64,000 bases of DNA from Thermoanaerobaculia bacterium (GCA_036274895.1 DASUEU010000057.1:5807-69806), one strand, 5' to 3'; shown: positions 1 to 64,000, counted from the first letter of the stretch. The notes: generated by a model from the sequence alone, not told the origin. Made by a program: numbers and translations.

Positions 1-20
1 AGTTCTCGGCGGATGCGCGG

Positions 21-356
21 ATGGTCGCCGCCGGTGAGTCGTTCCTCCGGCGGTCGCTGGAGGCCTTGCTCGACCTCGGTCGTCACGTGCTGGCCAAAGG
101 CTTCGGCAAGGTGATGCCGGAGTATGCCGCCGTGGCGGACGGCTTGCAGGCCCAGGGCGTTCTGCCACCGGAAAGCGCTGCCAAACTGCGGCTCATGGCG
201 CGCTACCGCAATCGGATGGTGCATTTCTACGACGACGTCACCCCACGCGAGCTCTACGACATCCTCACAAAGCAGCGGGGAGACGTGGCAGAGATCCTCG
301 CCGCCATCCGGACCTGGGTGGCTGCGCATCCGGCGCTTTGCGCCGAAGAGCTGTAG
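21..356 (+). CDS. HepT-like HEPN toxin (DUF86 family), possibly 5'-truncated by window edge
   Basis: RNRMVHFYDD matches the Rx4-6H HEPN motif of DUF86/HepT. The reading frame stays open upstream to position 3, so the start may lie outside the window. The partner nucleotidyltransferase antitoxin is expected upstream, outside the window. Confidence 0.55.
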   Translation: MVAAGESFLRRSLEALLDLGRHVLAKGFGKVMPEYAAVADGLQAQGVLPPESAAKLRLMARYRNRMVHFYDDVTPRELYDILTKQRGDVAEILAAIRTWVAAHPALCAEEL

Positions 357-369: not shown

Positions 370-3300
370 CTACGCCGCCCCCCCGCCCGCCCCCAGCACC
401 ACCCGCACCCGGCGTGCCTTGCCGTCGTCCAGCAGCGGAATCGCCGCCGGGCTGGCGGCCGAGCGAGCGATCGCCAGCCCATCGAGCTCGACGCGGGCCA
501 CGCCCCGGCAGCGCCGCTTGGGGTTCTCGACGACGATGGTGTAGAGCGTCCTGCCGAAGCGCCATTCGATGGAGAAGGTCGGCCACGACGACGGGATGCA
601 CGGGTTCACCGTGAAAAAGGCGCCGCGGCGCTCGAGCCCGAGGATCCCTTCCAGGGCCACCCGGTAGAGCCAACCGGCCGAGCCGGTGTACCAGGTCCAG
701 CCGCCGCGCCCGCGGTGGGCCGGGTGGTCGTAGACGTCCCCCGCGACGGCGTAGGGCTCGGTCTTGTACTGCTCGACCCGGCTCGGCGTCCGCGCGTGGT
801 TGATGGGGTTCAGCATGTGGAAAAGCTCCACCGCTTCGTCGCCGCTGCCGAGGCGTGTGAGGGCGAGCACGACCCACGCCGCCGCGTGGGTGTACTGCCC
901 GCCGTTTTCGCGGATGCCCGGAATATAGCCCTTGATGTAGCCCGGATCGAGAGCCGTGCGATCGAAGGGCGGCGAGAGCAGCAGGATGACCCCCGAGCCG
1001 CGCCGGACCAGGTGGGCACGCACGGCATCCATGGCCCGCTCGGCCCGCTTGCCGCGCGCGGCGCCCGACAGCACGGCCCAGGTCTGGGCCACGGAGTCGA
1101 TCTTCCCCTCGTCGTTCTGCGACGACCCCAGGGGCGTGCCGTCGTCGAAGTAGGCACGCCGGTACCACTCGCCGTCCCAGCTCTGCTCCAGCATGGTGCC
1201 CAACCGCTCGCGCTCGGCGCGGTAGCGCGCCGCTCGGGGCGCGTCACCCCGCTCTTCGCACCAGGGGGCGAAAGCTCCCAGGACGGCGTGGAGGAACCAG
1301 CCGACGAAGACGCTCTCCCCGCGACCCTCGGGGCCGACGTTGCTGAAGCCGTCGTTCCAGTCGCAGCTGCCGATCAGCGGCAGGCCGTGCGCACCCACGG
1401 TGAGGGCCCGATCCACCGCCCGCAGGCCGTGCTCGAAGAGGGTGCCCGTCTCCTGGGAGACGGTCGGGAGCCCGTACACCTCGGACTCTCCGGGCGGCAC
1501 GGCCGGCCCTTCGAGGAAAGGCACCTGCTGGTCGAGGACGCCGCGGTCGCCGGTGGCCTCGACGTACTCGGCGAGGGCGTACGGAAGCCAGAGGAGATCG
1601 TCCGAGCAACGGGTCCGGATGCCCTGACCGCCCGGGTCCGTGCCCGTCGGGGGGAGCCACCAGTGCTGGACGTCCCCCTCCACGAACTGGCGCGCGGCTG
1701 CCCGCAGGAGGTGCTCGCGGGTGAGGTCCGGCCGGGTGAAGAGGAGGGCCAGCACGTCCTGGAGCTGATCTCGGAAGCCGTAGGCACCGCCCGCCTGGGA
1801 GTAGCCGGAGCGCGCCCACAGGCGGCAGGCGAGGTTCTGGTAGAGGAGCCAGCGGTTGACCAGCAGGTCGAAGGAGTCGTCGGGGGTGGTGACGCGCACG
1901 GCGCCCAGCGTGTCCTCCCAGAAAGCCTCCACCCGGGCGAGCTCGGCCTCGGCGGCCGCGGCGCCGTCCTCGCCCGCGAAGGGCCGCAGCAGGGCGAGGG
2001 CCTCTGCCGCGTCCCGCCCCTGCCCGAGCAGGAACACCACGCGCCGGGTCGCACCGGGTTCGAGGTCCACCACAATCTGCAACGCCGCGCACGGGTCGAG
2101 ACCGGCGCCGAACCGGTTCAGCAGCAGCGGCCGGCCCAGCCCGGCCGCCCGCGCGAGCGAGCCGTTGCGGCCGAGAAACTCCAGCCGGTCGCCGGTGGCG
2201 GACAGCAGGGGCTCGCTCGCGGCGGCGAACGCGACGCGTTCCCGGTCGCGACCGTAGAGGTCGCGGGCCAGGACCGCTCCGGTCTCGCCGTCCTGCTCCG
2301 TGACGATGAACCTCGGACCGCCGGCCAGGGGGGGGCCGAGCAACCACTCGCAGTAGGAGAAGAGGGTGAGGCGCCGCGGGCGGTCGGAGCGGTTGGTCAG
2401 GCTCAGGAGGGACAGCTTCAGGGGCTCGTCCCGCGCCACGAAGACCGCCAGCTCCTGGTCGATGCCGCGCGCGGCGCGGGCGAAGCGCGTCACGCCGGCG
2501 GCGTGGCGCACCACCCAGCGCGGTGAGCGGGAGGTGCGCCCGAGGGGCGCCGGCGTGGCTCCCCACAGCGCGCCGCTCTCCTCGTCGCGAACGAAGATCG
2601 CCTCGGCCGTCGGGTCGCTGATCGGGTCGTTGGCGAACGGGGTGAGCCGGTTCTCCCGGCTGTTCTCAGCCCAGGTGTGGGCCGCCCCGGAGGTGGTGAC
2701 GATGCTGCCGAAGCCCGGGTTGGCGAGCACGTTGATCCAGGGCAGGGGGGTCTCTCGATCGCCCTCGAGGACGACGACGTACTCGCGCCCGTCGGGCGTG
2801 AAGCCGCCGAGACCGTTGCCGAGCAGCAGCGGCGGTGGCTCCCCTTCGGCCGCCGGCGCCGTCGTTTCGGGGGCCTCGTCGAGGGGCACGGTGCCGAGCG
2901 GCAGGGGAGGGTCGGTTCCCGGCCGGTCGAGCTGTTGCTCCAGGGTGCCGCGGTCGCCGGAGAGAACGGCCTGGGCGACCCCCTCGAGCAGCACCGTCTC
3001 GGCCTCCTGCATGGCCTCGGCCAGGAGCAGGAAGACGCCGCCGGGCTGGGCCTTCCAGGCGCTCCACGGGCCGGTGTCGAGCAGCTGCCCGAGCCCTTCG
3101 TTGATCGCCTCGCGGTAGCTCGCCGCGTGCTCGTTGAGGAGCACGACGTCCGCCCGCAGCCCCTTCAGGCGCCAGTGCTCGTGGGCGACGAGAACCTGCC
3201 GAACGAGCTCGAGGTCTTCGGGCTCGGCCACGCGGACGAGGACGATCGGCAGATCGCCCGAGATGCCGAACCGCCACAGACCGTCCTGCCCGAGGGTGTT

Positions 3301-6300
3301 CCTGGCCAGGGTCTCGCCGTCGGCGCGCAGGGAGGCGTCGGAGAAGAAGACCCGGGAGCCGAGTCGTTCGCAGAGCTGGGCCTCTCCGGCGGAGACCCCG
3401 AGATGGCGCAGGGACACCTGCGCCTGCGTGAAGGCCAGGGCGAAGACCCGGGCCGCGACGCCGTGGTCGTGGTACTTCTGGGCCGAGGCCAGTGCGGTCG
3501 GCTCGTCGGCGGCAACGCCGGTGGTGAACGAGACGCGGGCGAAGCCTCCGGGTGCCAGCCGCAGCCGGGTGCGCAGCGAGAGGATCGGGTCGAGCACCGC
3601 GCCGGTGGTCCCCGAGAGAGCGCGTCCGTTCATCGCCCTGGGGTTGTCGGGACCACGCCCCCGCCCCAGGAAGCGCATGCGATCGGTCTCCCACTCGACC
3701 TGCGCGTGGGTCGGTCCCTGCATGGCGAGCACGTGGAACCCCACCACCACCGGCTCGCCCGGCGAGCGCTGCCGGCGTCGCGCCAGCAGGGCCGTGTTCT
3801 CGGCGATCCACTCGGTCTCCACGAAGAGCTTGCCGAACGCGGGGTTGGCGACGTCCTCGGCGACCGACCCCAGACCCAGCTCGACGTAGCTCGTCAGCTC
3901 GATCTCGCGGGTGCGGTCGCTGCGGTTGGTCAGCGAGACGCGCCGGACCTCGGCATCGTCCCCGGGGGCGACGGCGATCTCGAGCCGCGTCAAGATCTCG
4001 TGGTCGAGCCGTTCGAAGGTCACCTTCTCGGCGAGGAGGTCCACCAGGTAGGTGTCGGGCTGCTTGGCGATGGGCTGGTAGGCCGCGGACCAGACGGCTC
4101 CGCTGTGGACGTCGCGCAGGTAGATGAACTGGCTTCCGGGATCGCGGGTGCGGTCCTGCCGCCAGCGCGTCACGGCGCGGCCGCGGCAGAAGCTCGTCCC
4201 GCCGCCGCCGTTGGTGACGATCGCGACGTAGCTGCCGTTCGAGAGGATCTGTGCCCGGGGGAAGGGCGTGTGGGGTGAGCGGAAGCGGCGCGGCGGGCGC
4301 GGCAGCGCGGGCGGCTCGGCCCGGGCCTCCTCGGCCGGCCGCGGGTCGATGACGGCGGCCTCGCGGGGGATCCGCTCCTGCAGCAGCAGCTCGGTCGCCT
4401 GGATGCGCCGGTCGGCATGGAACCGCTCGACCATCACGTCGGGCAGGAGGACGTTGGCGATGGCCACCAGCACCATCCCCTGGTGGTGCGCCATGTAGGT
4501 CTTCACGATCACGCCCGGGCCGCTGCTCGCGGCCGGAGAGTCGCCGCTCTCGTGCGGCTTGCGCACCGTGTAGTCGATGGCCTCGTAGTACCCGAGCGGC
4601 CCTTCGGCTCCCTCGGCTACCAGTCGTCGCAGGTTGCGCACGGCTTCGGCCGGCTCCAGGAGAGCGGCCAACGCCGTCGCGTAGGGGGCGACCACGAGCT
4701 CGTCGGCCAGCCCCCGTTTCAGCCCGAGGCCCGGGACGCCGAACTCCTTGTACTGGTAGTTGCCGAGCCGGTCGACCAGGTCGTAGGCGGACTCGGAGAT
4801 GCCCCACGGAGCCCGCCGCTCGCGACCGTATCGGATCTGGCGCCGGATGACCCTCCGGCAGCTCTGGTCGAGGAGCGTTCCCGGATACGTCCGCATCAGC
4901 AGGAGCGGCATCAGGTACTCGAACATCGTCGCGCTCCAGGAAACAAGCGTCGGCACGCCGCCCACGCTGACGACCAGCCGTCCGAGGTGAAACCAGTGGC
5001 TCTGCGGGACGTCGCCCTTGGCGATGGCGAAGAAGCTCGCCAGGCGCGACTCCGAGGCCAGGAGGTCGTAGAAGGCGCTGTCCATTCGCCCGGGCCCGTT
5101 GGCGTCGGCCAGGCGATAGCCGATCGAGAAGAGCTGACGCTGGCGGTCGTAGAGGAAGGCGAAGCGCATCCCGTCCGCGAGCGTCGCCGCGCGCCGTGCA
5201 ACGTCGCACAGCCGAGGTGCCAGGTCCGGTTGCGCCGCAGCCAGCTGCCGGCACCCTTCCGCCAGGGCCAGCAGGGCCCCCGCGAGATTGCCGCTGTCGA
5301 CCGTGGACACGTAGCGCGGCGAGAGGGGCGAGAGGCTCTGGGTGTCGTACCAGTTCAGCAGGTGACCCTCGTGGCGCTCCAGCCCTTCGACCGTGGTCAG
5401 GGTCCGGTCGAGCCGTTCGACCAGGGCCTGCGCCGGCAGCAGGCCCAGGTCGTGCGCCGCGAGCGTGGCGAGGAGCCCCATGCCGATGTTGGTCGGCGAG
5501 GTGCGGTGGGCCACCGGGGGCGCTCGTCCTTCCTGGAGGTTGTCGGGCGGCAGCCAGTGATCCTCGGGGCCGGCCAGGGTCTCGAAATAGAGCCAGGTCT
5601 TCTGCGCCACCGCCATCAAGAGCTGACGGTCCTCCGGCGATGGCTGGCTGCGGCGCGGCACCGTCGACCGGCTGAGCCAGTAGGCGCCGGCGGGTGCCGC
5701 CAGCCACAGGGCGAGGAACGGCAGGGCGAGAGGAAGGGCGCCGGGCCGCACCGCGCCGACCGAGGCCAAAAGCCCCAGGGCCGCGAGCGGGCTCGCCGCC
5801 ATCTCGACGAAGAAAGAGCGGATCCCCTGCCGCAGCAGGCCGGCGGCGCGCGCCCCCTGGGAGGCCGCGGTCTCCCACTCGAGCAGGCGGCGCCGGGTGA
5901 TGACCAACCGGACGAGCGTCAGGGCGATGGCGTGCACCATCTCCCAGGCCTGGAAGGGCAGGAAGACCAGGGTCAGGAGCGACTGCCCGAAGGCGGTGGC
6001 CAGATCCTCCAGGAGGCCCCGAAGGTGGATGCGAGCCCCCTCGCGCGAGGAGCGCCGCCGCGAGATCTGGAGCAGGGCGACCAGGAGGGGGAAGGCGACG
6101 ACGGCGAGACCGCCGAGGGTCCAGACCAGCGGGCTCCCCGGCAGGAAGGTCCACGCCGCGGCGAAGAAAGCGAGCAGCGCGGGGGGTACGAGGCTGCGCC
6201 GGAGGTTGTCGAAGATCTGCCACTGGCTGATGAGCGGCAGACGGTTCTTGATGAAGCCCTGGGGTGTCGGGACCACCGGCAAGAGCCAGGCGAGGATCTG

Positions 6301-8571
6301 CCAGTCGCCGCGCACCCAGCGGTGCTGCCGGCGGGCGTGCGCGAGGACGTTGGCGGGGTAGTCGTCCACCACCTCGACGTCGGAGACCAGCGCGGTCCGG
6401 GCGTGCAGTCCCTCGAAAAGATCGTGCGACAGCAGTGCGTTCTCGGGGACGCGCCAGCCCACCGTGGCCTGGAAGGCGTCGACGTCGTAGAGCCCCTTGC
6501 CGGTGAAGATCCCCGTACCGAACAGGTCCTGGTAGGTGTCCGAGACCGCCGTCGTGTAGGGATCGACGCCGGTGTGCCCGGCGTACACCCGGGCGAAGAG
6601 AGAGCCGGCGGCGCTGGCGAGGTTGACGCTCACGCGCGGCTGGAGGATGCCGTAGCCCTCGGTGACCCGCCTCAGGGCGGCGTCGACCACGGGCCGGTTG
6701 AGGGGATGGGCGAGGATCCCGATCAGGGTCCTGGCGGCACCTCTCGGCAGCCGCGTGTCGGCATCGAGGGTGAGGACGTAGCGCACGGACGGGAGGATGG
6801 CAACGTCCCCGACCTTGACGCAGGAGTGGGCGTCCGTGGGGCAACGCAAGAGGCGGTTGAGCTCCTCGATCTTGCCCCGCTTGCGCTCCCAGCCCATGAA
6901 CACGCCCTCTTTCGGGTTCCACTGGCGGTCGCGGTGGATCAGGTAGAAGCGGTCGCCGCTGCCGGGCCGGTGTGAGGGTCCGTGGCGGCGATTCAGCGCT
7001 TCGATGCCGGCCACCGCGGCGGCCAGGATCTCGTGGTCACCAGCCACCGAGAGCGTCCGCGCGTCCTCGAGATCGCTCAGGATCGCGAAGTGGATCCAGG
7101 GGTCGAGGTTGCCGAGGGCCTGGACCTCCAGGTGCGCCAGCAGCCGCTCGACCTCGCCAACGCTGCCGAGCAGCACCGGCACCACCACCATGGTGCGGGC
7201 GCTCTCGGGGATCCCTTCCGAGAAGTCGAGACGGGGGAGGCGCAGCGGCGGAACGAGCGCGGCGACCACCCGCTGGACGAGCAGCACGGCGAGCTCGCTC
7301 GCGGGAAGCAGCACCAGGAGGGCCGCGGCCAGCGCCATCCCCGGGCCGCCCGTCGAGTCGGCCCAGGCGTACGCGGCGAGCACGCCGCCCGCCGTCAGCA
7401 GGCCGATGCTGCCGAGGTAGGCCGCCGTTGCATGGGCGAAGGCCCAATGACGGAGCCGCTCGGCGAGGCGCGGCCGGTAGGCCACGTCGATCTCGAGACC
7501 GCTCCGGCCCGTGCCGATCAGGTGATGGCCGACGTGCGCCGCCGGGTCACCGGCCCCCGCGCGCTCCGCGGCCCGGCGGGCGCTCTCGACGGTGCGCAGG
7601 GCTACCCGCACCTGCGCCTCGCCGGTCGGTTGGGCGAGATCCTCCACGGCGTGCCGGTAGCGGTCGCGGCTGGCGAAGTCCATCCGGGGATAGGCCCCGG
7701 CGGGGTCTCGCCGCAGGACCTCCTCCACCGGGCTGACCTGCTCGACGAAGCGGCTCCAGTCGTGCGTGCCGCAGAACCGCAGGCTGGTCACCGTGTTGCC
7801 GGTGGAGACCTCCTCGGTGGCCTGGCGCTGGTTCTCGGCGCGCACCGCGTCCTCGGGTGTCGTTCCCGTCGCCGCCAGCGCCTGCTCCACCGCCGCGGCG
7901 AGGGGGGAGACGCGGGGGTCGTGCTCGCGCATTCGCTGGCGCAGCTGCGCCACGAAGGCGCTCGGCAGCGGCTCGGGGAGGGGACCGGGAGGGTCACCGT
8001 GCTCCAGCCGTGCGAAGGCACGGTCCGCCTCCAGGCGAGCCGCCCGCCCGGCCAGCAAGCCGTCGGTCAGGACCCTGAGGTTCTCGAGCAGGGCCAGCTT
8101 GAGCACGCTGGGCAAGGCCCAGAGCTCGCCGATGGTCAACGGCGCCACGGTCTGGAAGGCGAGGACGAAACGGGTGAGGCGCTCGGCGTCGAGGCGACCG
8201 TCGCCGTGCCGGATCAGCTCGAGCGCCAGGGCATGGATGCGGGCCTTGCCCGCGAGCTCGCGCGCCGCGAGCTTGGGCAGCGTCCGGTAGTAGCGGACGG
8301 GAAGATCCCGCCGCACGGCGCGCCCCTCCGACTCGACGAGGTGGAAGTTGTCGAGCAGCCACTCGGCGGCCGGAGGCACGGCGACGCCCCGGTGGACGTC
8401 GTCAGCGAGGGAGCCGTAGGCCGAAGCGAGGACCCGCCGGTTCTCGTCCAGCCGGGGCAGCACGCTCGGCCCGCCCGTGCGCGCGGCCGGCCTCAGCGTG
8501 AAGACGGCGGCGAGAGTCTTCGCCCGTTCCTCGAGGCCCTCGAGGCTCAACAGCTCGCCCCGGAGAGGCAT
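370..8571 (-). CDS. ndvB: cyclic beta-1,2-glucan synthase (GT2 plus GH94 phosphorylase-like domains), ~2733 aa
   Basis: Single 8.2-kb ORF with multiple TM segments in the N-terminal half. GT2 signature around [24 protein letters not shown]-terminal GH94/cellobiose-phosphorylase-like catalytic region ([23 protein letters not shown]). Size and architecture are typical of NdvB/ChvB/Cgs. Confidence 0.85.
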
Positions 8572-9214: not shown

Positions 9215-9895
9215 TCAGCCCCAGCGGACCGCCTTGTCCAGGGAGCGGGCGGCCACGTAGCGCTCGTTGACGATCTGGGTCTGCTCGATGGTCCAGGAGA
9301 GGTCGGGGTTCAGGATGGCGGTCATCGAGTAGACGTTGGGCGGGAACTGGATCTGCGCCGGCGCGTTCATGGTCGTCACGTCGATGACCTCGCCCTCGAC
9401 GTAGTTGCCGAAGGCGATCCAGTACTCCGGATGCGGGGTGAACACGGCGTTGACGTTCGCCATGGCCTGGACGACGTAGGTCGCCGAGCCGGCCATGCCG
9501 ATGCCGACCGACGCCACGTTGGAGGGGATGGTGCGGTCCTGGACCACGTTGAGCGACCCGGGCTGCGAGGCCTTGGTCTGGTTCGCGAAGGTGAAGGCAC
9601 CGTGCTGGGCGTCGTAGGTCAAGGTCACCTGGTTGGAGGTGGTGAGGTCCGCCGGCCAGTACTGCGAGGCGGCCACCACGATCCCCGGGGTCAGCACGCC
9701 GGTCTGGCTCCAGACGAAGCCGTACTCGATCTGCCACTGGAAGCTCACCGAGGTGGTCGGGTAGGCGTACTTGGTCATCCAGGCCAGGGGCATGCCGGCG
9801 TTGTCGAAGCTGGGGTTCTGCTGGTAGAGGCTCGCCGAGCCCGGGTTCTGGGAGTTGTTCTTGAAGATCACCGTGTATTGAAAGCCGTTGGCCAT
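9215..9895 (-). CDS. hypothetical protein; Cys-free, low-charge, N/Q/S/T/V-rich, 226 aa
   Basis: ATG at 9893-9895 lies 10 nt after the stop of the upstream selenoprotein gene, with a GGAGA RBS between them, so the two are co-transcribed. Codon usage is consistent with coding. No signal peptide and no family recognised. Confidence 0.5.
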   Translation of the reverse strand: MANGFQYTVIFKNNSQNPGSASLYQQNPSFDNAGMPLAWMTKYAYPTTSVSFQWQIEYGFVWSQTGVLTPGIVVAASQYWPADLTTSNQVTLTYDAQHGAFTFANQTKASQPGSLNVVQDRTIPSNVASVGIGMAGSATYVVQAMANVNAVFTPHPEYWIAFGNYVEGEVIDVTTMNAPAQIQFPPNVYSMTAILNPDLSWTIEQTQIVNERYVAARSLDKAVRWG

Positions 9896-9905: not shown

Positions 9906-10478
9906 TCACGCTGCGGTTGGGTCCCGGCCCACGCCGAGGGCGTCGGCCACGCGATTGATGTAGTTGAACCACGAAGCGATCAGGGTGATCTGGAGGATCG
10001 CTCGGTCGTCGAAGCCGTGGGCGCGCAGGCCCTCGTGGTCACCCGGGCTGATCCCCGTCGCATCACGGGTCAGCTGGGTCGCGTAGTCCAGCATGGCCCG
10101 ATCGGCCACCGAGATCGGGGCGTTCTCGTAGTCCGCCACCAGCGCCTCCACCAGGGCTTCGTCCAGGGTTACGGCACGCAGAAACTCTGCGTGAGCGCCC
10201 AGTCAGTACTGGCACCGGTTGACCGCCGAGACCCGGGTGGTGATCATCTCCTGCTGCCGCCGGGTGAGGGGCAGCTCCGGGGACAGCAGCGTGCCGAAGG
10301 TCGCGAACGCGTGGAAGAGGGCGTCCGGGATCAGCGTGTGGGTGGCCACGATGCTGCTGCTGCCATCATCCCCAGGGGCGCGGTCGTACTCCTTGGGGTA
10401 GAGGGCGCGCTGGCCTTCGATGGCCCGGCGCAGGGCATCGTCGGCCTGATCGAAGGGAATCGTCTTGATCCAGGCCAT
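9906..10478 (-). CDS. AhpD/carboxymuconolactone-decarboxylase-family (peroxidase-related) selenoprotein, CxxU motif, ~190 aa with in-frame UGA (Sec) at 10203..10205
   Basis: ORF-track fragments 10203..10523 and 9906..10151 are in the same frame, separated only by TGA. The read-through gives ...[24 protein letters not shown]..., i.e. the family active-site motif CxxCxxxH with U replacing the second Cys. N-terminus [11 protein letters not shown] is typical of this family. GAGGAGGAG RBS precedes ATG at 10476-10478. A hairpin follows the UGA. Confidence 0.7.
10175..10193 (-). other. putative bacterial SECIS hairpin (7-bp stem CACGCAG/CUGCGUG, loop AGUUU) starting 9 nt 3' of the UGA
   Basis: mRNA sense: UGA CUG GGC GCU CAC GCA GAG UUU CUG CGU GCC. 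Perfect 7-bp stem. The apical loop holds G and U residues ~17-21 nt downstream of UGA, as in the fdhF-type SECIS. Confidence 0.5.
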
Positions 10479-10626
10479 CGGGTCTCCTCCTCGGGATCCA
10501 GGAAGGGAACTTCCTCGGATCATGCTGGACGGTTCTGCCCATCGACTCTACCTGTTCTCCCGCGGCAGCGGTCCCCGCGCTAGACTAGGGCCTCACATCC
10601 AGCCACTTGCCGCCGAGGAGAGTCCG

Positions 10627-35718: not shown

Positions 35719-38592
35719 CTACGGCAGCGGCTCGCCGTCGGCCGGTAGGCGCAGGGCGTAGATGCCTCTGCCGAAGGTGAAGGCGGTGAGCGTGGTGCCG
35801 TAGGCCTCCTTGCCTTCCGGGCCGCGATCGATCGTCAGGTAGCGGATGATCGTGTTGGGCAGGCCGTGCTGATAGCGCACCCAGGTCGGCGTCGTGGCGT
35901 CGATGTTGTTGGTGTAGTAGAAGCCGAACGAAGTCCCCACGAAGACCTGCTTTCGGTTGTACGGGTTCACCGCAACGGACCACGCCGGCACGTCCGGCAG
36001 ATTGCCCGTTTTGTTCTTCCGAATCCAGCTCGAGCCATTCCACCGGAACTCGAAAAGGTGGCCGGGTGTGGTCGGCGTGTTGTCGTCGAAGCCGCCCACG
36101 GCGGCGTAGAGCCGCTGGTGGTTGGTGGGATCGAACGCTGTGCCCAGGACGGCGCGGTTGGGCAGCACCTCGTTGGCGGAGTCCACGTCCCGCCACAGGG
36201 CACTGGTGTTCGGGGTGCAAGTGAACGTCGGCTTGTTGGCGTGCTTCTCCGTGCAGGTCGAGCCGGTGAAGGCGTTGTTCGTCCACCACAGCTTGCCGTC
36301 GTTGGTGCCCGCCGCCGCCCCCTTGGGCCGGCTGGGGGCGAAGGCCAGGCTGACGATCGAGGCACTGCCGCCGCCCTTGGTCAGGAGCGGGGAGATCACC
36401 GTCCAGCTCGGGCTGGTGGCGCTGTAGGAACCCGAGGCGTGGACGTAGTCCTCACCGAAGAGCAGGTTCGCGCAGCGCTCGTGAGTGCAGTGCCACGGGT
36501 TCAAGACCAGCGGCGCGACGAGGTCCGCCGAGCCCAGCTGCTCAGGGTTGCAGCTGTCCGTGAAGGGGCCGTCGGCGCCGCTGTCCGCCGAGCAGAACAG
36601 CCAACCGAAGGAGAACTCGGAGAACCACCAGCCGGCCGTCTCGCTGCCGGCGACGGGGTCGAACGCCGAGTGATAGCCGTCGCCGCCGATGCCGCGGCCG
36701 GTCGCCGTCAGATCCGCGGTGGTCGAGTCCCAGCTCGCCGTGCCGTTGTCCTGCATGCCGCCGAACAGCCATTGCACGCCATCCATCCCCGAGCCTGCGA
36801 AGTCGGCACCGGCCTGGCCGCCGTAGAAGAGCAGGGTGTTGAAACTATCGTTGAGCTGGCGCCAGGCGTTGGCGTCGCCGGCCTTGTCGTTCCAGTAAAC
36901 GCCGCCGTCATTGCCCATCAGGAACGTCGAGCCCTCGGTGCCCGGCACGAAGGCCATGGCGTGGAAATCCGGGTGGATCTTGCCGTACTCGGGGCAGAGG
37001 GGCTCGTAGGTCGCGGAGAGGTTGGTGAGCGTAATCGCGGAGTAGTCCGCGCTCACCTCGCCCTTGAACACGTCGATGTGCCCGAGGTAGAGGGTGCGGT
37101 CGTTCTCCGGGTCCACGGCCACGAACAGGTCGAAGAAATCCTGATAGGTGTAGCTGATCGTGGCGTTGCAGTTGAGGTGATCCTCCTCGCCGCTGCCGGC
37201 GAGGCGCGTCCAGGTCGTCGAGCCGCCATCCGGCCGCAGCACGTAGGTGCCCTCGGCACTGCCGGTCTCCAGGCTGTGGACCTGGGCGTAGAGGGTGAGG
37301 TGATCGTCCTTGCCGATGCCCCCGGCCAGCTCGATGCGGCCGGTCCAGCTGCCGTCCTCCCAGTAGGGGACGCCGTTGCCCGTGCCGGCGGGAAGGCCGG
37401 CGGAGAGGAGGGTGAAGTCCCCGGGCCAGGTCGGGCAGCCGGCGGCCGGCACGTTGAAGCGGTAGATGCCGTTGTTGCCGTTGGCGTCACCGCCGGTGTG
37501 CCCCACGGCCACGTAGGCCACGGTGGGCGTGGCGCGGGCATCGAGATAGATCGCGCTGACGCGGTTGATCGATTGCAGGGGCCCGCCGGAAACCGAGGGG
37601 TTGGTGTAATCGTTGCCGAAAGCGCAGATCTGCCAGGTATTGCCGGCGTCGTTCGAAAGGTAGAGATCGTTGCGCGTGCCGACCAGCACGGTCGAGGGCT
37701 GGTGGGGATCGACCTCGATGTCCTTGACCGCCTGGTTGTCCCAGCGGTTGCCGCCGGCCGGCAACGTCGGGGAGAACGGCGTGAACACGCTCGCCCCGAG
37801 CTGGGTCCAGGTGGCACCGGCGTCGGTCGACTTCATGATGCCGGCGCTGAATTGGGCGCGGCCCACGGCGTCCCCGGTGCCGACGTAGAGGATGCTCGAG
37901 TTGTTGGGATCCAGCTCCACGGCCCCGGCGGCCTGGCTGACGAAGTCCTTGTCGTCCCACAGCGGCGTCCAGACCTCGCTGCCCGAGCCCAGGTTGGTGG
38001 TCTTCCACAGGCCACTCGCGGCGAAGGCGGCGTAAGCGACGTTGGGGGAGCTCGGGTTCACGGCCAGGCCGTTGGCCGCCACGCGGCCCGAGACGCGGCC
38101 CCACTGGTAGGCGTCGTTGGTGGTGCCCACGCTGTCCACCGGCTGCGGGCCGTAGGAGACCCAGGTGTTCGTGCCTGGGGGAATGACACCTTCGCGGGCG
38201 AGGCGGGCGGCATTGGCCGGGGCTCCCGCCCAGGCCGGAGCGTCCGTAACGTGGCGGGCCACCCAGTCGCGAGCGCGATCCCAGGCCATCGGCGGGATCC
38301 GGCCGGTGGGGTAGGTGAGCAGGTGCCACTCCACCGCATCGGCGGTGTCGATCCGGTCGCCGTTGCCCAGGCGGAAGCCGGAGGGAAGGGCGCGAAGGTA
38401 GGCCTCCGAGCCGCGCTTCTGATGCTCCTTGCGGGCCTGGCGAGCCTGCGCGGGGTCGCCGGATGCCGCCCCTTGGTGAGCAGCGGGCGGCAGCATCCAG
38501 ACGGCCGCCGCCAGGGCGCCGAGGAACACCAGGGCAGGAATGCCGGCACGAGCTACGAGCCGTGGCCAGCGAGCTGATTGCGTCCTACTCAT
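35719..38592 (-). CDS. secreted BNR/Asp-box repeat protein (sialidase/GH74/Ycf48-like beta-propeller), 957 aa
   Basis: Start MSRTQSARWPRLVARAGIPALVFLGALAAAVW with AAGGAA RBS; the upstream track extension is rejected. Several Asp-box repeats (STDAGATW, SNDAGNTW). Confidence 0.75.
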   Translation of the reverse strand: MSRTQSARWPRLVARAGIPALVFLGALAAAVWMLPPAAHQGAASGDPAQARQARKEHQKRGSEAYLRALPSGFRLGNGDRIDTADAVEWHLLTYPTGRIPPMAWDRARDWVARHVTDAPAWAGAPANAARLAREGVIPPGTNTWVSYGPQPVDSVGTTNDAYQWGRVSGRVAANGLAVNPSSPNVAYAAFAASGLWKTTNLGSGSEVWTPLWDDKDFVSQAAGAVELDPNNSSILYVGTGDAVGRAQFSAGIMKSTDAGATWTQLGASVFTPFSPTLPAGGNRWDNQAVKDIEVDPHQPSTVLVGTRNDLYLSNDAGNTWQICAFGNDYTNPSVSGGPLQSINRVSAIYLDARATPTVAYVAVGHTGGDANGNNGIYRFNVPAAGCPTWPGDFTLLSAGLPAGTGNGVPYWEDGSWTGRIELAGGIGKDDHLTLYAQVHSLETGSAEGTYVLRPDGGSTTWTRLAGSGEEDHLNCNATISYTYQDFFDLFVAVDPENDRTLYLGHIDVFKGEVSADYSAITLTNLSATYEPLCPEYGKIHPDFHAMAFVPGTEGSTFLMGNDGGVYWNDKAGDANAWRQLNDSFNTLLFYGGQAGADFAGSGMDGVQWLFGGMQDNGTASWDSTTADLTATGRGIGGDGYHSAFDPVAGSETAGWWFSEFSFGWLFCSADSGADGPFTDSCNPEQLGSADLVAPLVLNPWHCTHERCANLLFGEDYVHASGSYSATSPSWTVISPLLTKGGGSASIVSLAFAPSRPKGAAAGTNDGKLWWTNNAFTGSTCTEKHANKPTFTCTPNTSALWRDVDSANEVLPNRAVLGTAFDPTNHQRLYAAVGGFDDNTPTTPGHLFEFRWNGSSWIRKNKTGNLPDVPAWSVAVNPYNRKQVFVGTSFGFYYTNNIDATTPTWVRYQHGLPNTIIRYLTIDRGPEGKEAYGTTLTAFTFGRGIYALRLPADGEPLP

Positions 38593-38784
38593 TCGGCTGA
38601 TTCCTTTGGACCGGACGGCGGGCCAGTTCCCGTCGTCCAAGGCGAGGCGAAGTAGAATCACCAGAGAGTTTGTGAACACACCAAAAGATACCATGTGAAG
38701 CCAGTGCAGGGCATCTCGATTCGATGGCTGCGCGACCGTTGAGGCGGCACCCGCCCGCGGCGAGCCCGGCGCCGGCGTTCTCGG

Positions 38785-38802
38785 CTGCTCAAGACTGAGC
38801 AG
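38785..38802. promoter_or_regulatory. palindromic operator CTGCTCA-agac-TGAGCAG (copy 1 of 3)
   Basis: 135 nt upstream of the first ABM-like gene. Shares the identical 16-mer TGCTCAAGACTGAGCA with the site at 46639-46658. Same half-sites as the perfect palindrome at 51027-51050. Confidence 0.6.
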
Positions 38803-38936
38803 ATCCCCCCCGCTCGGGACGGTAGAGTCACCGCCAGCTCCGAAGCCGTTCGCCATCCCGAGCCGCGCACCCCTGGAATGCGGGTGCCGATACGGGTCTC
38901 TCTCTGCTTCGGGCGTTGCGGAGGTCCGTTTCAGCG

Positions 38937-39791
38937 ATGGTGCCCACAGCAGCCGCACAGACCACCCAGGAACCGGACCAGCTCCTGCATTCGGCGAGCT
39001 CCGGGCTGATCATCCACCGCACGGCACAGCTCAAGAACGAGTTCCGCTCGGGGGGGCGCGAGTTCGCCCGTGAGGTGGCCGAGCACGTCAACCGGACCCA
39101 GACCGGCAGGGCGACCCTCTTCGTCTACGAGGAAGCCTTCGGGGTGCACGACCGCATCCACTGGCTGATCCACCTCGGCGGCCTCACCGACTACCTGACC
39201 CTGATCACCATGTCGGTCAACGACGAGGGCTTCCGCAACATCTTCTTCCGCGAGCGCATCGCCCCTGAGAAGGGCGGTGGCGATTGGTCGCGGATGTTCC
39301 CGGATGGCTCACTGTCGGAGCGGGTGTTGATCCCGCTGCGGCGACCGGGGGCCAACGGGACGGACGGCGCCGCCTTCCCGCTACCGGCTGGCCGGCAAAC
39401 GACGCTGCCCGCCGAGCAGATCCTGCATTCGGCCAACGCCGGGATGCTGGTCGAGCGGGTCGGCATCGCCCGCTACGAGGCCCGCGACCAGGCCCGCGAG
39501 CTGGCCCTCGAGGTGGCGGAGCGGGTCAACCTCGGTCTGCCGGGAGTGGCCTCGATGTTCGTCTACGAGGAGATGTTCGGCCGCCAGGACTGCCTGCACT
39601 GGCTGATCCACCTGCGCGCCCTCGACGCCTACACCGCCTTCTTGGCCTTCGTCCAGGAGGACGCCGGCCTGGCCGAGATCCTGCGCCGTTCGGGCCCCGG
39701 GGGCGGTTGGAGCTGGTTCCTCGACGGCAGCCTCGAAGAGACGGTGCTGGTGCCGCAGTTCGCCGGCAGCTCGGGCACCGTCAAGCGCTGA
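38937..39791 (+). CDS. tandem-duplicated ABM/Dabb-like (dimeric alpha+beta barrel) domain protein
   Basis: Two internal ~125-aa repeats sharing LHSA..G...R...ARE.A.EVAE.VN...FVYEE.FG..D..HWLIHL...DGSL.E.VL.P. The FVYEE..G....HWL segment resembles the antibiotic-biosynthesis-monooxygenase fold. GGAGG RBS. Family assignment is tentative. Confidence 0.55.
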   Translation: MVPTAAAQTTQEPDQLLHSASSGLIIHRTAQLKNEFRSGGREFAREVAEHVNRTQTGRATLFVYEEAFGVHDRIHWLIHLGGLTDYLTLITMSVNDEGFRNIFFRERIAPEKGGGDWSRMFPDGSLSERVLIPLRRPGANGTDGAAFPLPAGRQTTLPAEQILHSANAGMLVERVGIARYEARDQARELALEVAERVNLGLPGVASMFVYEEMFGRQDCLHWLIHLRALDAYTAFLAFVQEDAGLAEILRRSGPGGGWSWFLDGSLEETVLVPQFAGSSGTVKR

Positions 39792-39821
39792 ACACGTCCA
39801 CCGTGAGCCCCGGGAGCCGTG

Positions 39822-40706
39822 ATGAACCCTGCCCAACCCTCAACCGCCGGCGCCGCGCCGGTGATCCCCCCGGCCTTCCATCAAGCCGCCCAGCCCGTGG
39901 AGGCCCTGCTCAACTCGGCCAGCTGCGGACTGATCATCCAGCGCACCGGCCAGATCAAGGGCAAGTACCGCTCCGAGGGCCGCCAGTTCGCCCGCGAGCT
40001 GGCCGAGCACATCAACGAGAGGCAGCTCGGACGGGCCACGGTGTTCGTGTACGAGGAGACCTTCGGCGTCAAGGAGCGACTCCACTGGCTGATCCATCTG
40101 CGCTCGCTGCGCGACTATCCCACCATGGTGGCGATGGGCGCGGCCGACGAGAAGTTCCGCGAGCTGATCCTCCGCGAGCGGCTGCCGGGGGGAGGGCGGT
40201 GGGACGAGATCTTCCTGGACGGCTCCCTGCGCGAGACCGTGCTGGTGCCCCAGCGCTGGCTCTCCCCCGGCCGCGACGGCGCGCCCTCCGGCACGGCCCT
40301 CGACCAGCTCGGGCCCGGCGAGACGACGTTCCTCCACTCCGCCACCGCCAGCTCGATCGTGCAGGTCTCCGGCATCCTGCGCCACGAGCACCGGCGCAGC
40401 GGCCGGGAGGTCGGCCGCCGCCTGGCGGAGCGCCTCAACCGCGAGCAGGCCGGCGCCATCACGGCCCTGGTGTACGACGAGGCCTTCGGCGCGGGCGAGC
40501 GGGTCCACTGGCTCCTCCACCTCTCGGCCCTGAGCGACCACGCCGAGCTGGCGCCCTACCTCGGGCCGGAGCCGGTGGCCGAGGGCAGCGGTGCCGGCCC
40601 GGCGGCGGAGCCGTCCTGGCGCGAGCTGTTCGTCGAGGGCTCCCTTTCCGAGGTCGCGTTGACCCCTCAATTCTGGGGCCTGTACGCTACGAAAAAGCCA
40701 TCGTGA
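39822..40706 (+). CDS. paralogue of the preceding tandem ABM/Dabb-like protein
   Basis: Same two-repeat architecture (…GRATVFVYEETFGVKERLHWLIHL… and …ITALVYDEAFGAGERVHWLLHL…), giving four domain copies across two adjacent genes. Confidence 0.55.
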   Translation: MNPAQPSTAGAAPVIPPAFHQAAQPVEALLNSASCGLIIQRTGQIKGKYRSEGRQFARELAEHINERQLGRATVFVYEETFGVKERLHWLIHLRSLRDYPTMVAMGAADEKFRELILRERLPGGGRWDEIFLDGSLRETVLVPQRWLSPGRDGAPSGTALDQLGPGETTFLHSATASSIVQVSGILRHEHRRSGREVGRRLAERLNREQAGAITALVYDEAFGAGERVHWLLHLSALSDHAELAPYLGPEPVAEGSGAGPAAEPSWRELFVEGSLSEVALTPQFWGLYATKKPS

Positions 40707-40732
40707 GCGTGCCCGACACCCAGGAGGGGATC

Positions 40733-41200
40733 ATGACCGAAGCGCTGGTGGAGGCCTGGCTGGTCAACAACCGAGTCAACCTGATGATTCTCCGCGAGCT
40801 GGGGGACGAGGCCCTGGCCGCCAGCCTCTCCTCGCGGGGCGGGCGCACCGTGGGCGAGCAACTGGCCCACGTGCTCGAGGTGCGGCGGGCCAAGGTGGAG
40901 GCGGCGGACAAGGCCCTCGCCGCGACCATCCCCACGGTCGGCCGCGAGCAGGGCCACGACCGGGAAGCCCTGCTCGCCGGCTTCGAGAAGAGCGGCGAGG
41001 CGGTGGCCGAGCTGATCCGCAAGAGCGCAGGCGAGGGCGGGCAGGTCAAGGGCTTCCGCCGCGGCATCGTGGTCCTGATCGCCTACCTGATCGCTCACGA
41101 CGCCCACCACCGGGGACATCTGTTCCTGACCCTCAAGCAGTCCAAAGTCGGGATCCCGGCCTCGCTCCGCATGGAGATCTGGGCCTGGAACCAGATCTGA
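40733..41200 (+). CDS. DinB/YfiT-like (DinB_2) metal-dependent protein
   Basis: Motifs GEQLAHVLEV and IAHDAHHRGH (His-triad). ~155 aa. CAGGAGGGGATC-ATG start. Confidence 0.7.
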   Translation: MTEALVEAWLVNNRVNLMILRELGDEALAASLSSRGGRTVGEQLAHVLEVRRAKVEAADKALAATIPTVGREQGHDREALLAGFEKSGEAVAELIRKSAGEGGQVKGFRRGIVVLIAYLIAHDAHHRGHLFLTLKQSKVGIPASLRMEIWAWNQI

Positions 41201-41203
41201 GCC

Positions 41204-42619
41204 ATGGCTCCGGCGCTCCTCGACGACACGTCGTCCGCGAAGCCGCGGGAGCGCCCTGCGAGCGCGGCCGCCGGCCGGGCCCGGCCGCCCGGGCCCCGCG
41301 GGTTGCCCCTGCTGGGCTGCCTGCCGGCCTTCCGCCGGGATCCCCTCGCCTTTCTGCAACGCACCGCACGCGAGCACGGAGACGTCGCCTTCTTCCGCCT
41401 CGGCACCCAGAACGTTTTCCTCTTGAACGACCCCGAGCTGATCCGCGAGGTGCTGGTGCAGCGACAGGGCCTGTTCACCAAGAGCCGGGGCCTGCGCCGC
41501 GCCCGCGCCCTCCTCGGAGACGGCCTGCTGACCAGCGAGGGCGAGGTGCACCACCGCCACCGCCGCCTGGTGCAGCCGGCCTTCCACCCGGACCGCCTCC
41601 AGGGCTATGCCGAGGTGATGGTCGACGCCGCCCTCGAGACGGGCCGGCGCTGGCGGGCCGGCGAGTCGGTCGAGGTCTTCTCCGAGATGGCGCGCATCAC
41701 CCTGGGGGTGGTCGGCACCACCTTGTTCAGCGTCGAGGTGGAGGAGGAGGCCCAGGAGATCGGCACCGCCCTGACCAGCGTGCTCGAGATGTTCAGCATC
41801 ATGATGCTGCCCTTCTCGGGCCTGGTCGAGCGCCTGCCCTTGCCGGTGGTGCGGCGTTTCCACGCTGCCCGCAGCCTCCTCGATGGGCGTATGGAGCGCT
41901 TGATCCACGAGCGCCGGGAGAGCGGCAGGGACTCCGGCGACCTGTTGTCGATGCTGCTCCTGGCCCAGGACGAGGCGGGGGGTGGGCTGTCGGACCGCGA
42001 GGTGCGCGAGGAGGCCTTGACCCTCTTCCTGGCCGGCCACGAGACCACCGCCAACGCCCTCTCCTGGACCCTCTACCTGCTGGCGTCGAACCCCGACTGC
42101 GAGGCACGGCTGCACCGGGAGCTCGAGGAGGTGTTGGGCGGGCGCCGGCCGACCTTCGCCGACCTGCCCCGCCTGTCCTGGGCCGAGCACGTGCTGGCCG
42201 AGGCCATCCGCCTCTACCCGCCGGCCTGGGCGATCGGGCGCTCGGCCAGGGAAGCCCTCGAGCTGGGCGGCTTCGAGGTGCCGGCGGGCAGCACCGTGAT
42301 CCTGAGCGCCTACGTCACCCAGAACGACCCCCGCTACTTCCCCCATCCCGAGGTCTTCGATCCCGAGCGCTGGCAGCCAGGGCCGAGGGCGGAGCGGCCG
42401 AAGTTCGTCTACTTCCCCTTCGGTGGCGGTGCCCGGACCTGCATCGGCGAGCGCTTCGCGATGATGGAGGGCGTGCTGATCCTGGCCACGCTGGCCCAGC
42501 GCTGGCGGCTGCGGCTGGCGCCGGGCCAGACCGTCGAGCCGATGCCGCTGATCAACACACTGCGGGCTCGGGGTGGCTTGCCGCTCCGGCTCGAAGCACG
42601 CGGCGCGCCAGCTCCCTGA
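41204..42619 (+). CDS. cytochrome P450
   Basis: AGHETT I-helix, ExxR, heme loop FGGGARTCIG. Ends with GLPLRL as in many P450s. Confidence 0.9.
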   Translation: MAPALLDDTSSAKPRERPASAAAGRARPPGPRGLPLLGCLPAFRRDPLAFLQRTAREHGDVAFFRLGTQNVFLLNDPELIREVLVQRQGLFTKSRGLRRARALLGDGLLTSEGEVHHRHRRLVQPAFHPDRLQGYAEVMVDAALETGRRWRAGESVEVFSEMARITLGVVGTTLFSVEVEEEAQEIGTALTSVLEMFSIMMLPFSGLVERLPLPVVRRFHAARSLLDGRMERLIHERRESGRDSGDLLSMLLLAQDEAGGGLSDREVREEALTLFLAGHETTANALSWTLYLLASNPDCEARLHRELEEVLGGRRPTFADLPRLSWAEHVLAEAIRLYPPAWAIGRSAREALELGGFEVPAGSTVILSAYVTQNDPRYFPHPEVFDPERWQPGPRAERPKFVYFPFGGGARTCIGERFAMMEGVLILATLAQRWRLRLAPGQTVEPMPLINTLRARGGLPLRLEARGAPAP

Positions 42620-43757
42620 CGTTGGCCTCGGCGCGGAACACCGAGAGGTGGTCGCCGTGCGGCTCGACGTAGAGGGTCGCGTCGGCCAGACGGGCCGCCA
42701 CCCGGCGCGAGCCTTCGGGGTGGGCGGTGCCGTCGTCCTGGCTGGTGATCACCGCCACCGGCTGTCGCACGCGCGGCAGCAGCGCCTCGACCTCGAAGCT
42801 CATGATGCTGCCGTTCAAGAGCCCGTAACGATGGGTCAGCTCGGCATTGGCCCAGGGGTAGAGGACGTGGGCGGCGGGCTGGGGCAGGGGCTTGCCGGCC
42901 AGGGCGTGGCACATCGCCCCCCGCACCGCGGCGGCGCTCTCCCGGCTCTCGGCGGCCATCGCCAGCAGCGACCCGAGGTCGTGCTGGTGATCGGTCTTCG
43001 GGCCGCCGGCACCGAGCTCGTAGTCGCCGTGCCAGAGGCTCAAGGAGTGGACCCTCGCCGGCCAGGCCGCCGCCGCGGCGAGGGCCAGGACCGCCCCACC
43101 GCACATCCCGAGGGCATGGGCCGAGGCCACGCCGAAGCGATCCATCACCGCCACCAGGTCGGCCGCCTGGGCCGAGACGTCCCGCCCCCGGCGGTCGAAG
43201 GCGGCGTCCGCGAGGAAGAGGCCCCGGCTCTCCCAGGTGAGGACGTAGGCGTCACGGGCAAGGAAGTGTAGCCAGGCCAGCGACAGCCCCACCGGCATGC
43301 CGCAGGGGGGCACCAGCACCACGGCCGGCCGGCTGCGCTCGCCCAGGGCATAGGCCCGAAGCGGCGTACCGTCGAAGGAGCTCAGGTGCACGGGCTCCGG
43401 GCGCCCTTCGCCGGGGTCGGCGAGCGCGCGCCGGGTGCTCCGCTCGAAGGCCTCGACGCTGGGCCAGGCAGGCCGGGCCTCGTCGAGGCTCGCCAGGGCG
43501 CTCTCCAGGCCCTCGCTCAGCACCCGGGCGAAAAGCCTGGCCCCGGGATCGGCGGGCGTCTCGCCCAGCGTGAGCCGGGGGGCCGGAAGGCCCCGGCAGA
43601 CCGCGTCGAGGCACGCCTGGAGCGGGGCGGCCTCCCCGCCCTGGGCCAGGGCGAGGGGCAGGTGGAGGGGCCGGGGCAGGGCATCGATCAGCGGCCGCAG
43701 GGCCAGCACCGAGCGGGCCAGGAGCAGGGCGAGGTCCACGCCCGGGGCGAGGGCCAT
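42552..43757 (-). CDS. alpha/beta-fold hydrolase/acyltransferase with Cys nucleophile (G-M-C-G-G elbow)
   Basis: Nucleophile elbow HALGMCGGAVLA, acid near SQDDG, His in EPHGDHLS. 3' end overlaps the convergent P450 by 68 nt. First Met lies 10 nt after the PhyH-family gene stop. Confidence 0.7.
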   Translation of the reverse strand: MALAPGVDLALLLARSVLALRPLIDALPRPLHLPLALAQGGEAAPLQACLDAVCRGLPAPRLTLGETPADPGARLFARVLSEGLESALASLDEARPAWPSVEAFERSTRRALADPGEGRPEPVHLSSFDGTPLRAYALGERSRPAVVLVPPCGMPVGLSLAWLHFLARDAYVLTWESRGLFLADAAFDRRGRDVSAQAADLVAVMDRFGVASAHALGMCGGAVLALAAAAAWPARVHSLSLWHGDYELGAGGPKTDHQHDLGSLLAMAAESRESAAAVRGAMCHALAGKPLPQPAAHVLYPWANAELTHRYGLLNGSIMSFEVEALLPRVRQPVAVITSQDDGTAHPEGSRRVAARLADATLYVEPHGDHLSVFRAEANVRELARRVLRAGAASHPEPAVC

Positions 43758-43767
43758 CGGCGTCCCC

Positions 43768-44718
43768 CTAGCGGTTCGGGAACGGGTAGCCGCGGGTGGT
43801 GGCGGTGGCGATGCGGTTGTAGCGGTAGCGATCCTCGCCCGCCACCACCACGGCGCCGTAGCGGTCCAGCCGCACCGTGCCGCCGTACTCCTCGATGGCC
43901 TCGCTGTCCGGGTAGACGTGGACCCGGGTGGGCACGTAGCGCGCCGCGAAGCCCATGCGCATCTCCTGGGTCTTGCCGCGGTGGGGATGGGAGGCGTGCA
44001 TCAGGGTCGACCAGAAGAGGATGGCCTGGCCCGGCCGCATCACCATCGACACCGCATGATCCTCGTCCGGCTTCCAGTCGGGATCGATCTGCAGCTCGCG
44101 GTAGTCGTAGCCGAAGAAGCCGCGCCGGATGCCGTCCTTCTCGACCTGGTTGATCGACTCCGGGCGGTAGTGCATCTCCTTCTGCTCGTCGTAGAACATG
44201 GTGTGGTGGGTGCCGGGGATGAACTGCAGGCAGGCAGTGTCTTCGTTGGCCTCGGTGAAGGCCGTCCACACCGTGATGGTGCCGCCGAAGTCCTCGTGAC
44301 CGTCCGGCCAGACGATCTGCGGCTGGCCCGAGGCGTTGGCGAAGGTGTCCGCCTGATGCCAGTCGGTGCCCTCGTCGCCGGGGTACTTGGGGAAGAACTC
44401 GGTGCGCCAGCACAGCACGTCCGGCCCCAGGATGCTGACCACGCGGTCGACGATCTCCGGACGGCAGATGTGGTCGGCGAAGAACTGGCAGTCGAGGTGG
44501 CGGTCGTAGTTGCCGATGTTGGTCGCCCCCGACTGGGCGACGCTCTCCTGGTAGACGGCAGCGGAGCGGTCCATCAGCTGCAAGCGCTGGCGCCGCCAAT
44601 GGGCCTTCATCTCCTCGACCTCGTAGACCGTGAACGGCCCGAGGTAGCCGTTGCGATGAAAGGCGGCGAGCTCCGCCGGGCTAAGAGAGAACTTCGGCTG
44701 CGTCAGGGTGTCCAGCAT
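43768..44718 (-). CDS. PhyH-family Fe(II)/2-oxoglutarate-dependent oxygenase, HQAD variant of the facial-triad motif (possible halogenase-like)
   Basis: PhyH-like core with WHQADTF where hydroxylases have WHQD (H-x-D). The A at +2 matches the H-x-A pattern of SyrB2/CmaB-type halogenases. A distal His is in [10 protein letters not shown]. The start may be a later Met, since the ORF overlaps the A-PCP gene by 38 nt. Confidence 0.7.
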
Positions 44719-46552: not shown

Positions 46553-46638
46553 GTCGGCTCACTTCCTGGAGGCGCTGGCCCAGAGCACGGGAGAGGCTGG
46601 TTGTCGCTGCACGATTGTGGGAAAGCTGCTCCGAGCCG

Positions 46639-46658
46639 TCTGCTCAAGACTGAGCAAG
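46639..46658. promoter_or_regulatory. palindromic operator TCTGCTCA-agac-TGAGCAAG (copy 2 of 3)
   Basis: In the 91-bp gap upstream of the A-PCP gene. Overlaps the AT-ER stop codon (tca at 46644-46646). Confidence 0.6.
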
Positions 46659-49729: not shown

Positions 49730-49731
49730 CT

Positions 49732-50964: not shown

Positions 50965-51026
50965 CGGCGGGCACGGCGCGCAGAGGGGAGGCGTCGGGCT
51001 GGGAAGCTAAGCGAGCGGCGGGGCAC

Positions 51027-51968: not shown

Positions 51969-51969
51969 G

Positions 51970-64000
<12,031 letters not shown>

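Follow-up and report, generated by a model that had tools for sequence, protein, structure and literature searches.

The gene at positions 9,906 to 10,478 (minus strand) of the 64,000-nucleotide stretch of Thermoanaerobaculia DNA analysed here, which we call the window, very probably encodes a selenoprotein that is decoded through a hairpin in its own mRNA. Its sequence points to an unbroken gene, split in the public annotation, whose product is a small redox protein of AhpD type with selenocysteine (Sec) in place of an active-site Cys. The initial annotation had anticipated that such a gene would be mis-annotated as a pseudogene or as two fragments, and two separate NCBI entries for it do indeed exist. 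They belong to the record of a Thermoanaerobaculia bacterium metagenome-assembled genome, on a contig of 151,111 bp; the glucose-6-phosphate dehydrogenase encoded in the window is 100% identical to HEX4954720.1 of that record, a source with which the closest AhpD-like loci accord. The features on which the following discussion is based are these:

9906..10478, minus strand: complete predicted AhpD-like selenoprotein gene (TIGR01926 'peroxidase-related enzyme'), 190 codons in a single frame
10484..10490, minus strand: Shine-Dalgarno-like GGAGGAG, 5 nt upstream of the ATG at 10478, read from the sequence
10478..10476, minus strand: start ATG, placed by the homologue N-terminal consensus and the upstream Shine-Dalgarno
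10248..10250, minus strand: E77, candidate relay residue, from spacing and conservation
10191..10214, minus strand: active-site motif C89-Q-Y91-U92-L-G-A-H96, from translation
10203..10205, minus strand: in-frame UGA, predicted selenocysteine codon U92, at the second position of CxxC/CxxU
10175..10193, minus strand: SECIS-like hairpin CACGCAG/AGUUU/CUGCGUG, 7 bp with a 5-nt loop and G at loop position 2, starting 9 nt after the UGA
10176..10193, minus strand: near-invariant 18-nt hairpin core, from conservation in 81 sequences
9908..9906, minus strand: terminal TGA stop
10203..10478, minus strand: N-terminal fragment as annotated, 91 aa, ending at the UGA, HEX4954714.1 'hypothetical protein VF017_15080', by exact-sequence look-up
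9906..10139, minus strand: C-terminal fragment as annotated, 77 aa, from a GTG at 10139, HEX4954713.1 'peroxidase', by exact-sequence look-up

Translated from 10478 to 9906, the minus strand yields a frame of 190 codons that is interrupted only once, by the TGA at 10205..10203, whose context is NRCQY-TGA-LGAH. The ORF list of the stretch contains the same region as two fragments, 10203..10523 and 9906..10151, which lie in the same frame; the single internal stop in the 190-codon translation bears out the earlier claim that they are collinear and in frame across one TGA. An ATG at 10523 was considered as the start and rejected in favour of that at 10478, where the N-terminus reads MAWIKTIP, the consensus of homologues being MTWIKTIP, and where GGAGGAG stands just upstream at 10490..10484. 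A scan for promoters and terminators on the gene's strand gave nothing useful.

The family to which the product belongs was established with protein queries in which Cys was substituted at the UGA. Among the NCBIfam models, TIGR01926 'peroxidase-related enzyme' is matched with 107.5 bits over residues 48-187 (curated cutoff 81.8, E 6.5e-31) and the AhpD core domain model TIGR00778 with 39.3 bits (cutoff 27.8), and the Pfam CMD domain PF02627 is found with an E-value of 4e-10. Two further models, NF041238 (AhpD_rel_CFYUT, 59.5 against a cutoff of 175) and NF053654 (YciW-related, 37.2 against 310), score below their cutoffs; these are related selenoprotein families, distinct from that of the gene described here. 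Relatives of known structure are 2PFX, 3C1L, 2OYO, 2PRR and 6K40, with E-values from 3e-25 (2PFX) to 2e-17. They are Cys-containing 'uncharacterized peroxidase-related' proteins (6K40 is named 'AhpD') of the same length class, about 190 aa, the match extending over residues 57-182 at an E-value of 3e-25, and they differ in having Cys where the gene has UGA, so that no recoding signal is needed. A literature search on PDB 6K40 returned nothing relevant.

The position of the UGA within the active site is well defined by these comparisons. In the alignments with 2PFX and 3C1L the CxxCxxxH motif is in exact register with the motif of the gene, and the column occupied by the TGA holds Cys in these two structures and in 50 of the 120 closest database homologues. 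The assignment of the TGA to the second Cys of CxxCxxxH, made from the window sequence at the outset, thus stands. Among 29 aligned homologues E77, C89 and H96 are invariant and Y91 is present in at least 90%. The spacing of E77, C89, Y91, U92 and H96 is that of the proton-relay residues of AhpD from Mycobacterium tuberculosis (Glu118/Cys130/His132/Cys133/His137) and of PA0269 from Pseudomonas aeruginosa (Glu36/Cys48/Tyr50/Cys51/His55) (PMC3141380), and a Glu/Cys/Cys/His relay is retained in COG2128-type AhpD homologues (PMC6300522).

By virtue of the shared AhpD core domain and the Glu-12-Cys-x-x-Cys-x-x-x-His spacing, M. tuberculosis AhpD (TIGR00777; 1GU9, 1KNC), the reductase of the peroxiredoxin AhpC, may serve by analogy as the mechanistic model for the CxxU pair. 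It is not an orthologue, however: the TIGR00777 model is not reached (20.3 bits against a cutoff of 191.95), the part in common is the 45-residue core domain only, and the relay lies elsewhere in the chain. Its His132 is a Tyr here, as in PA0269, and there is no partner AhpC gene adjacent in the window.

Conservation of the TGA across genomes speaks for recoding. A search of species-representative genomes gave 591 relatives, and all of the best 80 loci (66-83% identity) have a TGA at the homologous codon and keep the frame before and after it. These 80 belong mostly to several classes of Acidobacteriota, with 10 from Gemmatimonadota and 1 from Pirellulales, and the closest AhpD-like loci among them, at 82-83% identity, are from Thermoanaerobaculia. 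The tblastn matches cover query residues 1-186. In comparisons with the four closest loci dN/dS is 0.08-0.18 upstream of the TGA and 0.12-0.23 downstream, and amino-acid identity downstream of it is 73-81%. Both halves of the gene are, on these figures, under purifying selection, and from the downstream value it follows that the downstream half is translated.

These data also bear on the possibility that the gene is simply dead, a TGC or TGT Cys codon having mutated to TGA and left two non-functional fragments. Such a change requires a single substitution, the public record does list two separate short proteins, and none of the machinery for Sec insertion was found in the window. A decaying gene, on the other hand, would not be expected to carry the identical TGA codon in 80 of 80 of the best-matching species-level genomes, drawn from several phyla, nor to keep its frame intact with a dN/dS of 0.12-0.23 beyond the TGA, nor to keep a hairpin against codon bias in the TGA-type genes only, as described below. 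The conservation of the TGA taken together with dN/dS therefore excludes a pseudogene for practical purposes, and we give this explanation a very small probability.

One locus in the comparison set, L046 (DASROJ010000400.1), is binned as 'Patescibacteria group bacterium' and contains a TGA-type gene whose motif and hairpin are nearly identical to those of Pyrinomonadaceae; its 3.7-kb contig is probably mis-binned.

The hairpin downstream of the TGA is present where it had been noticed in the window sequence, at 10175-10193, with a 7-bp stem and a 5-nt loop and beginning 9 nt after the TGA. Folded alone it has an energy of -10.8 kcal/mol. Judged from the window only, it is at most suggestive. 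With a GC content of 72%, 0.19% of positions in the 64 kb begin a perfect 7-bp hairpin, and such a hairpin lies 6-13 nt downstream of 8 of the 982 TGA triplets in the window; the 76-nt local fold is unremarkable (z = -0.81), and folding energy alone is therefore no evidence. It is the comparison across genomes that lifts the hairpin far above chance. An additional lower stem (columns 10-12 with 31-33), which many of the sequences could form, was considered and is not claimed, being lineage-dependent and no better than shuffles. The hairpin motif does not recur in the window.

For this comparison 81 TGA-type sequences were aligned, namely the window gene and the best 80 loci of the 591. From +12 to +29 after the TGA, the codons CAC GCA GAG TTT CTG CGT, encoding H-A-E-F-L-R, are fixed in 78-81 of the 81. 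The entropies at the third positions of these six codons are 0, 0.23, 0, 0, 0 and 0.26 bit, whereas neighbouring third positions have 1-1.9 bit. In a codon alignment of the whole gene, where the median is 1.26 bit, synonymous entropy averages 0.08 bit over the six-codon block; none of the 137 windows is lower, and the next-lowest ones all overlap it. The third positions that fall in the stem each have the base needed for pairing, as follows:

His codon position 3 (C) pairs with Arg codon position 2 (G): CAC in 81 of 81
Ala codon position 3 (A) pairs with Leu codon position 2 (U): GCA in 78, GCG in 3, giving G-U
Leu codon position 3 (G) pairs with Ala codon position 2 (C): CTG in 81 of 81
Arg codon position 3 (U) pairs with His codon position 2 (A): CGT in 78 of 81

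The only common variant in the block, GCA to GCG, retains pairing as G-U. The loop codons are always GAG rather than GAA and TTT rather than TTC (81 of 81), which keeps a G and a U in the loop. No compensatory covariation was found in the stem among the 81 sequences, because every pair has one base that is fixed by an invariant amino acid; the argument for an RNA structure is accordingly one from conservation and pairing potential and not from covariation.

It might be supposed that the hairpin is not a SECIS element, and that its conservation is a by-product of an invariant HAEFLR peptide or reflects some other function of the RNA or DNA, such as attenuation or mRNA stability. In accordance with this, H96, E98, F99, L100 and R101 are invariant in Sec and Cys forms alike, the stem shows no covariation, and the window has no Rfam match. 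Conservation of the peptide, however, cannot reach the invariant third codon positions. Three of the codons are, moreover, ones that each account for only 3-4% of their family in the window (GCA 3.1% of Ala, TTT 3.4% of Phe and CGT 4.2% of Arg codons), and given window codon usage the chance of this codon series for HAEFLR is 1.7e-5. A control is provided by the five homologues of Cys type, which have TGC at the site (L084-L088). Four of these encode HAEFLR and L088 encodes HLEFLR, but their codons vary (GCC or GCG, TTC, CGC or CGG) and the exact hairpin block is absent from all five, so that the constraint is strictly tied to the TGA, with 81 of 81 TGA-type sequences having the block and 0 of 5 of Cys type. 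The pattern argues for selection on RNA structure independent of the peptide, and we consider it highly improbable that the hairpin has a role other than that of a SECIS.

In its general form the hairpin resembles the bacterial SECIS of the E. coli fdhF type and the bSECISearch consensus, lying inside the coding sequence about 10 nt after the UGA and having a small apical loop with G then U and a GC-rich upper stem. The E. coli element has a spacing of about 11 nt and a requirement for G/U in the loop. The hairpin of the window gene differs from that type in having no bulged U, in a lower stem that is variable and unsupported, and in the lack of a match to any curated Rfam family.

The reading that we favour is thus of a single gene whose product would be a 190-residue AhpD-like (COG2128/TIGR01926) thiol-selenol oxidoreductase with the active site C89-x-x-U92-x-x-x-H96. 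In the mRNA, the hairpin at 10193..10175, with a G in its apical loop, would act as a bacterial SECIS: SelB, carrying GTP and Sec-tRNA(Sec), would be brought to a ribosome that has paused at the UGA, and Sec would be inserted instead of termination taking place. The TGA that ends the same gene is without such a hairpin. U92, at the second-Cys position of the AhpD CxxC, would cycle together with C89 between the selenol/thiol and the selenenylsulfide, assisted by a relay of E77, Y91 and H96, in the reduction of a peroxiredoxin-type partner or a hydroperoxide. Decoding by SelB and SECIS, incorporation of selenium and the role towards a physiological substrate are all predictions from sequence, and the biochemical role, which is assigned by homology, is less certain than the identity as a selenoprotein.

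The best 120 database proteins are full-length, about 188 aa, and 62-72% identical to the product; at the TGA column they have 50 Cys, 67 Trp, 1 Ser, 1 Leu and 1 gap. Three of the proteins with Trp were checked at the DNA level. Two have TGA (P0002, on two JGI contigs, and P0094, on an ENA contig), and their stored proteins do not match a translation with table 11; the third, P0061 (ENA contig), has a true TGG. Trp at the Sec site is evidently in the main an artefact of gene callers that used a code in which TGA is Trp. The contigs in question (loci L081, L082 and L091) are short, and the entries derived from them appear to be mistranslated selenoproteins. Two metagenomic homologues are without a TGA and have the 18-nt hairpin block intact, with TGG at L083:955-957 and TTA at L092:580-582; these are either sequencing or polishing errors or else very recent losses of Sec, which would remove the catalytic residue. 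In a neighbour-joining tree, which is crude and without support values, 44 of the 50 Cys forms fall in one clade and the Sec forms in a few pure clades, a topology that fits few switches between Sec and Cys and an inherited hairpin.

The frequency of Trp in gene-caller translations of homologues could also be taken to mean that the UGA is read through by something other than Sec, whether by an opal suppressor, by a tRNA that mimics tRNA(Sec) (an allo-tRNA or a selC* tRNA(Cys)), or under a genetic code that assigns an amino acid to UGA. Allo-tRNAs, which are possible nonsense suppressors, have been described in Acidobacteria, and tRNA(Cys) species that mimic tRNA(Sec) and depend on SelB have been described in Deltaproteobacteria (PMC5389517). 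Against this, the Trp calls are mainly artefact, as shown by the TGA in two of the three proteins checked, the third being the true TGG, and selC* genes were not reported in Acidobacteria in the same study (PMC5389517). TGA ends 15 of the 20 window genes, this gene included; stop-codon usage rules out a genome-wide reassignment of UGA, TGA being here a normal stop. A scan for internal TGAs with coding-type flanks found no other recoded TGA in the window, the sole other match being the boundary of two adjacent genes at 41198. Furthermore, the UGA stands at a redox Cys position, the family has been catalogued before as one that contains Sec, and a conserved hairpin lies at the SECIS position with the loop G that SelB-dependent Sec decoding requires. 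Read-through without Sec is on this evidence very unlikely.

For selenocysteine to be inserted the organism must have the machinery for it, as the initial annotation had implied, and the conserved TGA and hairpin suggest that it does. No match to E. coli SelA, SelB or SelD was found by tblastn in the 64-kb window or in 88 related loci, and Pfam scans of the 27 window ORFs revealed no SelA, SelB or SelD domains. ARAGORN detected no tRNA genes in the window, and in the 88 related loci ordinary tRNAs only, with no tRNA-Sec near the homologues. Acidobacteria have been recorded as having selenoproteins (PMC1794560); a literature search on Thermoanaerobaculia and selenocysteine returned nothing relevant.

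A variant of read-through decoding deserves separate mention. The acidobacterial UGA and hairpin might be decoded not, or not only, by Sec-tRNA(Sec) and SelB, a tRNA(Sec)-like suppressor (an allo-tRNA or a selC*-type tRNA(Cys)) inserting Cys or some other residue, for example under selenium limitation. We give this little credence. If it were true, the gene would encode a facultative Sec/Cys protein, and the TGG of L083 and the TTA of L092, with their intact hairpins, would show the abandonment of Sec while it is still in progress.

Decoding as Sec is in keeping with what has been described for the family, and the suggestion that AhpD-like proteins are a known selenoprotein family finds ample confirmation in the literature. 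The AhpD-like protein (COG2128) with a CxxU motif was among the new selenoprotein families that emerged from the Sargasso Sea data, where it was represented by 27 sequences and SECIS elements were predicted (PMC1088965). In the GOS data 'AhpD-like 1', counting 299 Sec and 902 Cys forms, ranked fourth in abundance among prokaryotic selenoprotein families (PMC2398784). Reviews from 2022 (PMC9312934) and 2026 (PMC13188914) cover COG2128 (YciW), TIGR01926 and the CxxU motif, the latter listing the family with TIGR01926. The predicted product has every sequence-level hallmark of this family, known since 2005: it falls in the same HMM family, has CxxU with Sec at the second Cys and a stem-loop with an apical-loop G directly downstream of the UGA, and has widespread Cys homologues. 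It differs in its source, an uncultured soil-type Thermoanaerobaculia (Acidobacteriota) metagenome-assembled genome and not the marine plankton of those two surveys, and in being split and unrecognised in the public record.

The genes surrounding the predicted selenoprotein gene differ between genomes. A 226-aa gene at 9215-9895 (minus strand), given by NCBI as 'protein rhiA' (HEX4954712.1), starts 10 nt after the selenoprotein stop with its own GGAG and is probably co-transcribed with it. It has no Pfam match and occurs beside no homologue, and synteny with the window neighbours (the RhiA-like protein and a metallophosphoesterase) was found in none of the related loci. A recurrent partner, absent from the window, is an amino-acid permease gene (PF00324/PF13520) on the same strand directly upstream, which is found in about 26 of the 80 TGA-type loci and 3 of the 5 Cys-type loci. 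It spans about 1.3 kb upstream of the AhpD-like gene (L004-L088), with overlapping start and stop where gene calls existed.

Elsewhere in the window several other genes were observed. A HepT-like ribonuclease (the toxin of a HepT/MntA-type pair) at 3-356 (plus strand) is cut by the window start, and at 370-8571 (minus strand) a 2733-aa protein has the GT2, glucoamylase-like and GH94 domains of the cyclic beta-1,2-glucan synthase architecture. A 1096-aa ORF at 35719-39009 (minus strand) has no Pfam match. Two tandem DUF6039 genes followed by a cytochrome P450 occupy 38826-44817, with a PhyH-family dioxygenase nearby. The end of the window, 44681-63999, is taken up by a hybrid NRPS/trans-AT-type PKS cluster. 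Among its members are an adenylation-PCP protein, a stand-alone acyltransferase with a fused NMO-like domain, an HMG-CoA-synthase-like gene and a regulator of the Crp family. Its megasynthase exceeds 4035 aa (C, A, nitroreductase, 3 KS, KR, 4 PCP/ACP) and runs off the window end.

General knowledge of selenoproteins is unchanged by this gene, as the family, motif and mechanism were described about twenty years ago; its value lies in the correction of annotation and in a clean synonymous-site signature. HEX4954714.1 and HEX4954713.1 would be merged into one 190-residue selenoprotein, and in many database entries of the family the Trp at the catalytic site would be recognised as spurious, the product of gene callers that had gone over to genetic code 4. 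A TGA, 9 nt and then CACGCAGAGTTTCTGCGT could serve as the signature of the family in soil metagenomes. If the reading proposed here is correct, use of Sec would be implied for this uncultured Thermoanaerobaculia bacterium and for many soil Acidobacteriota and Gemmatimonadota.
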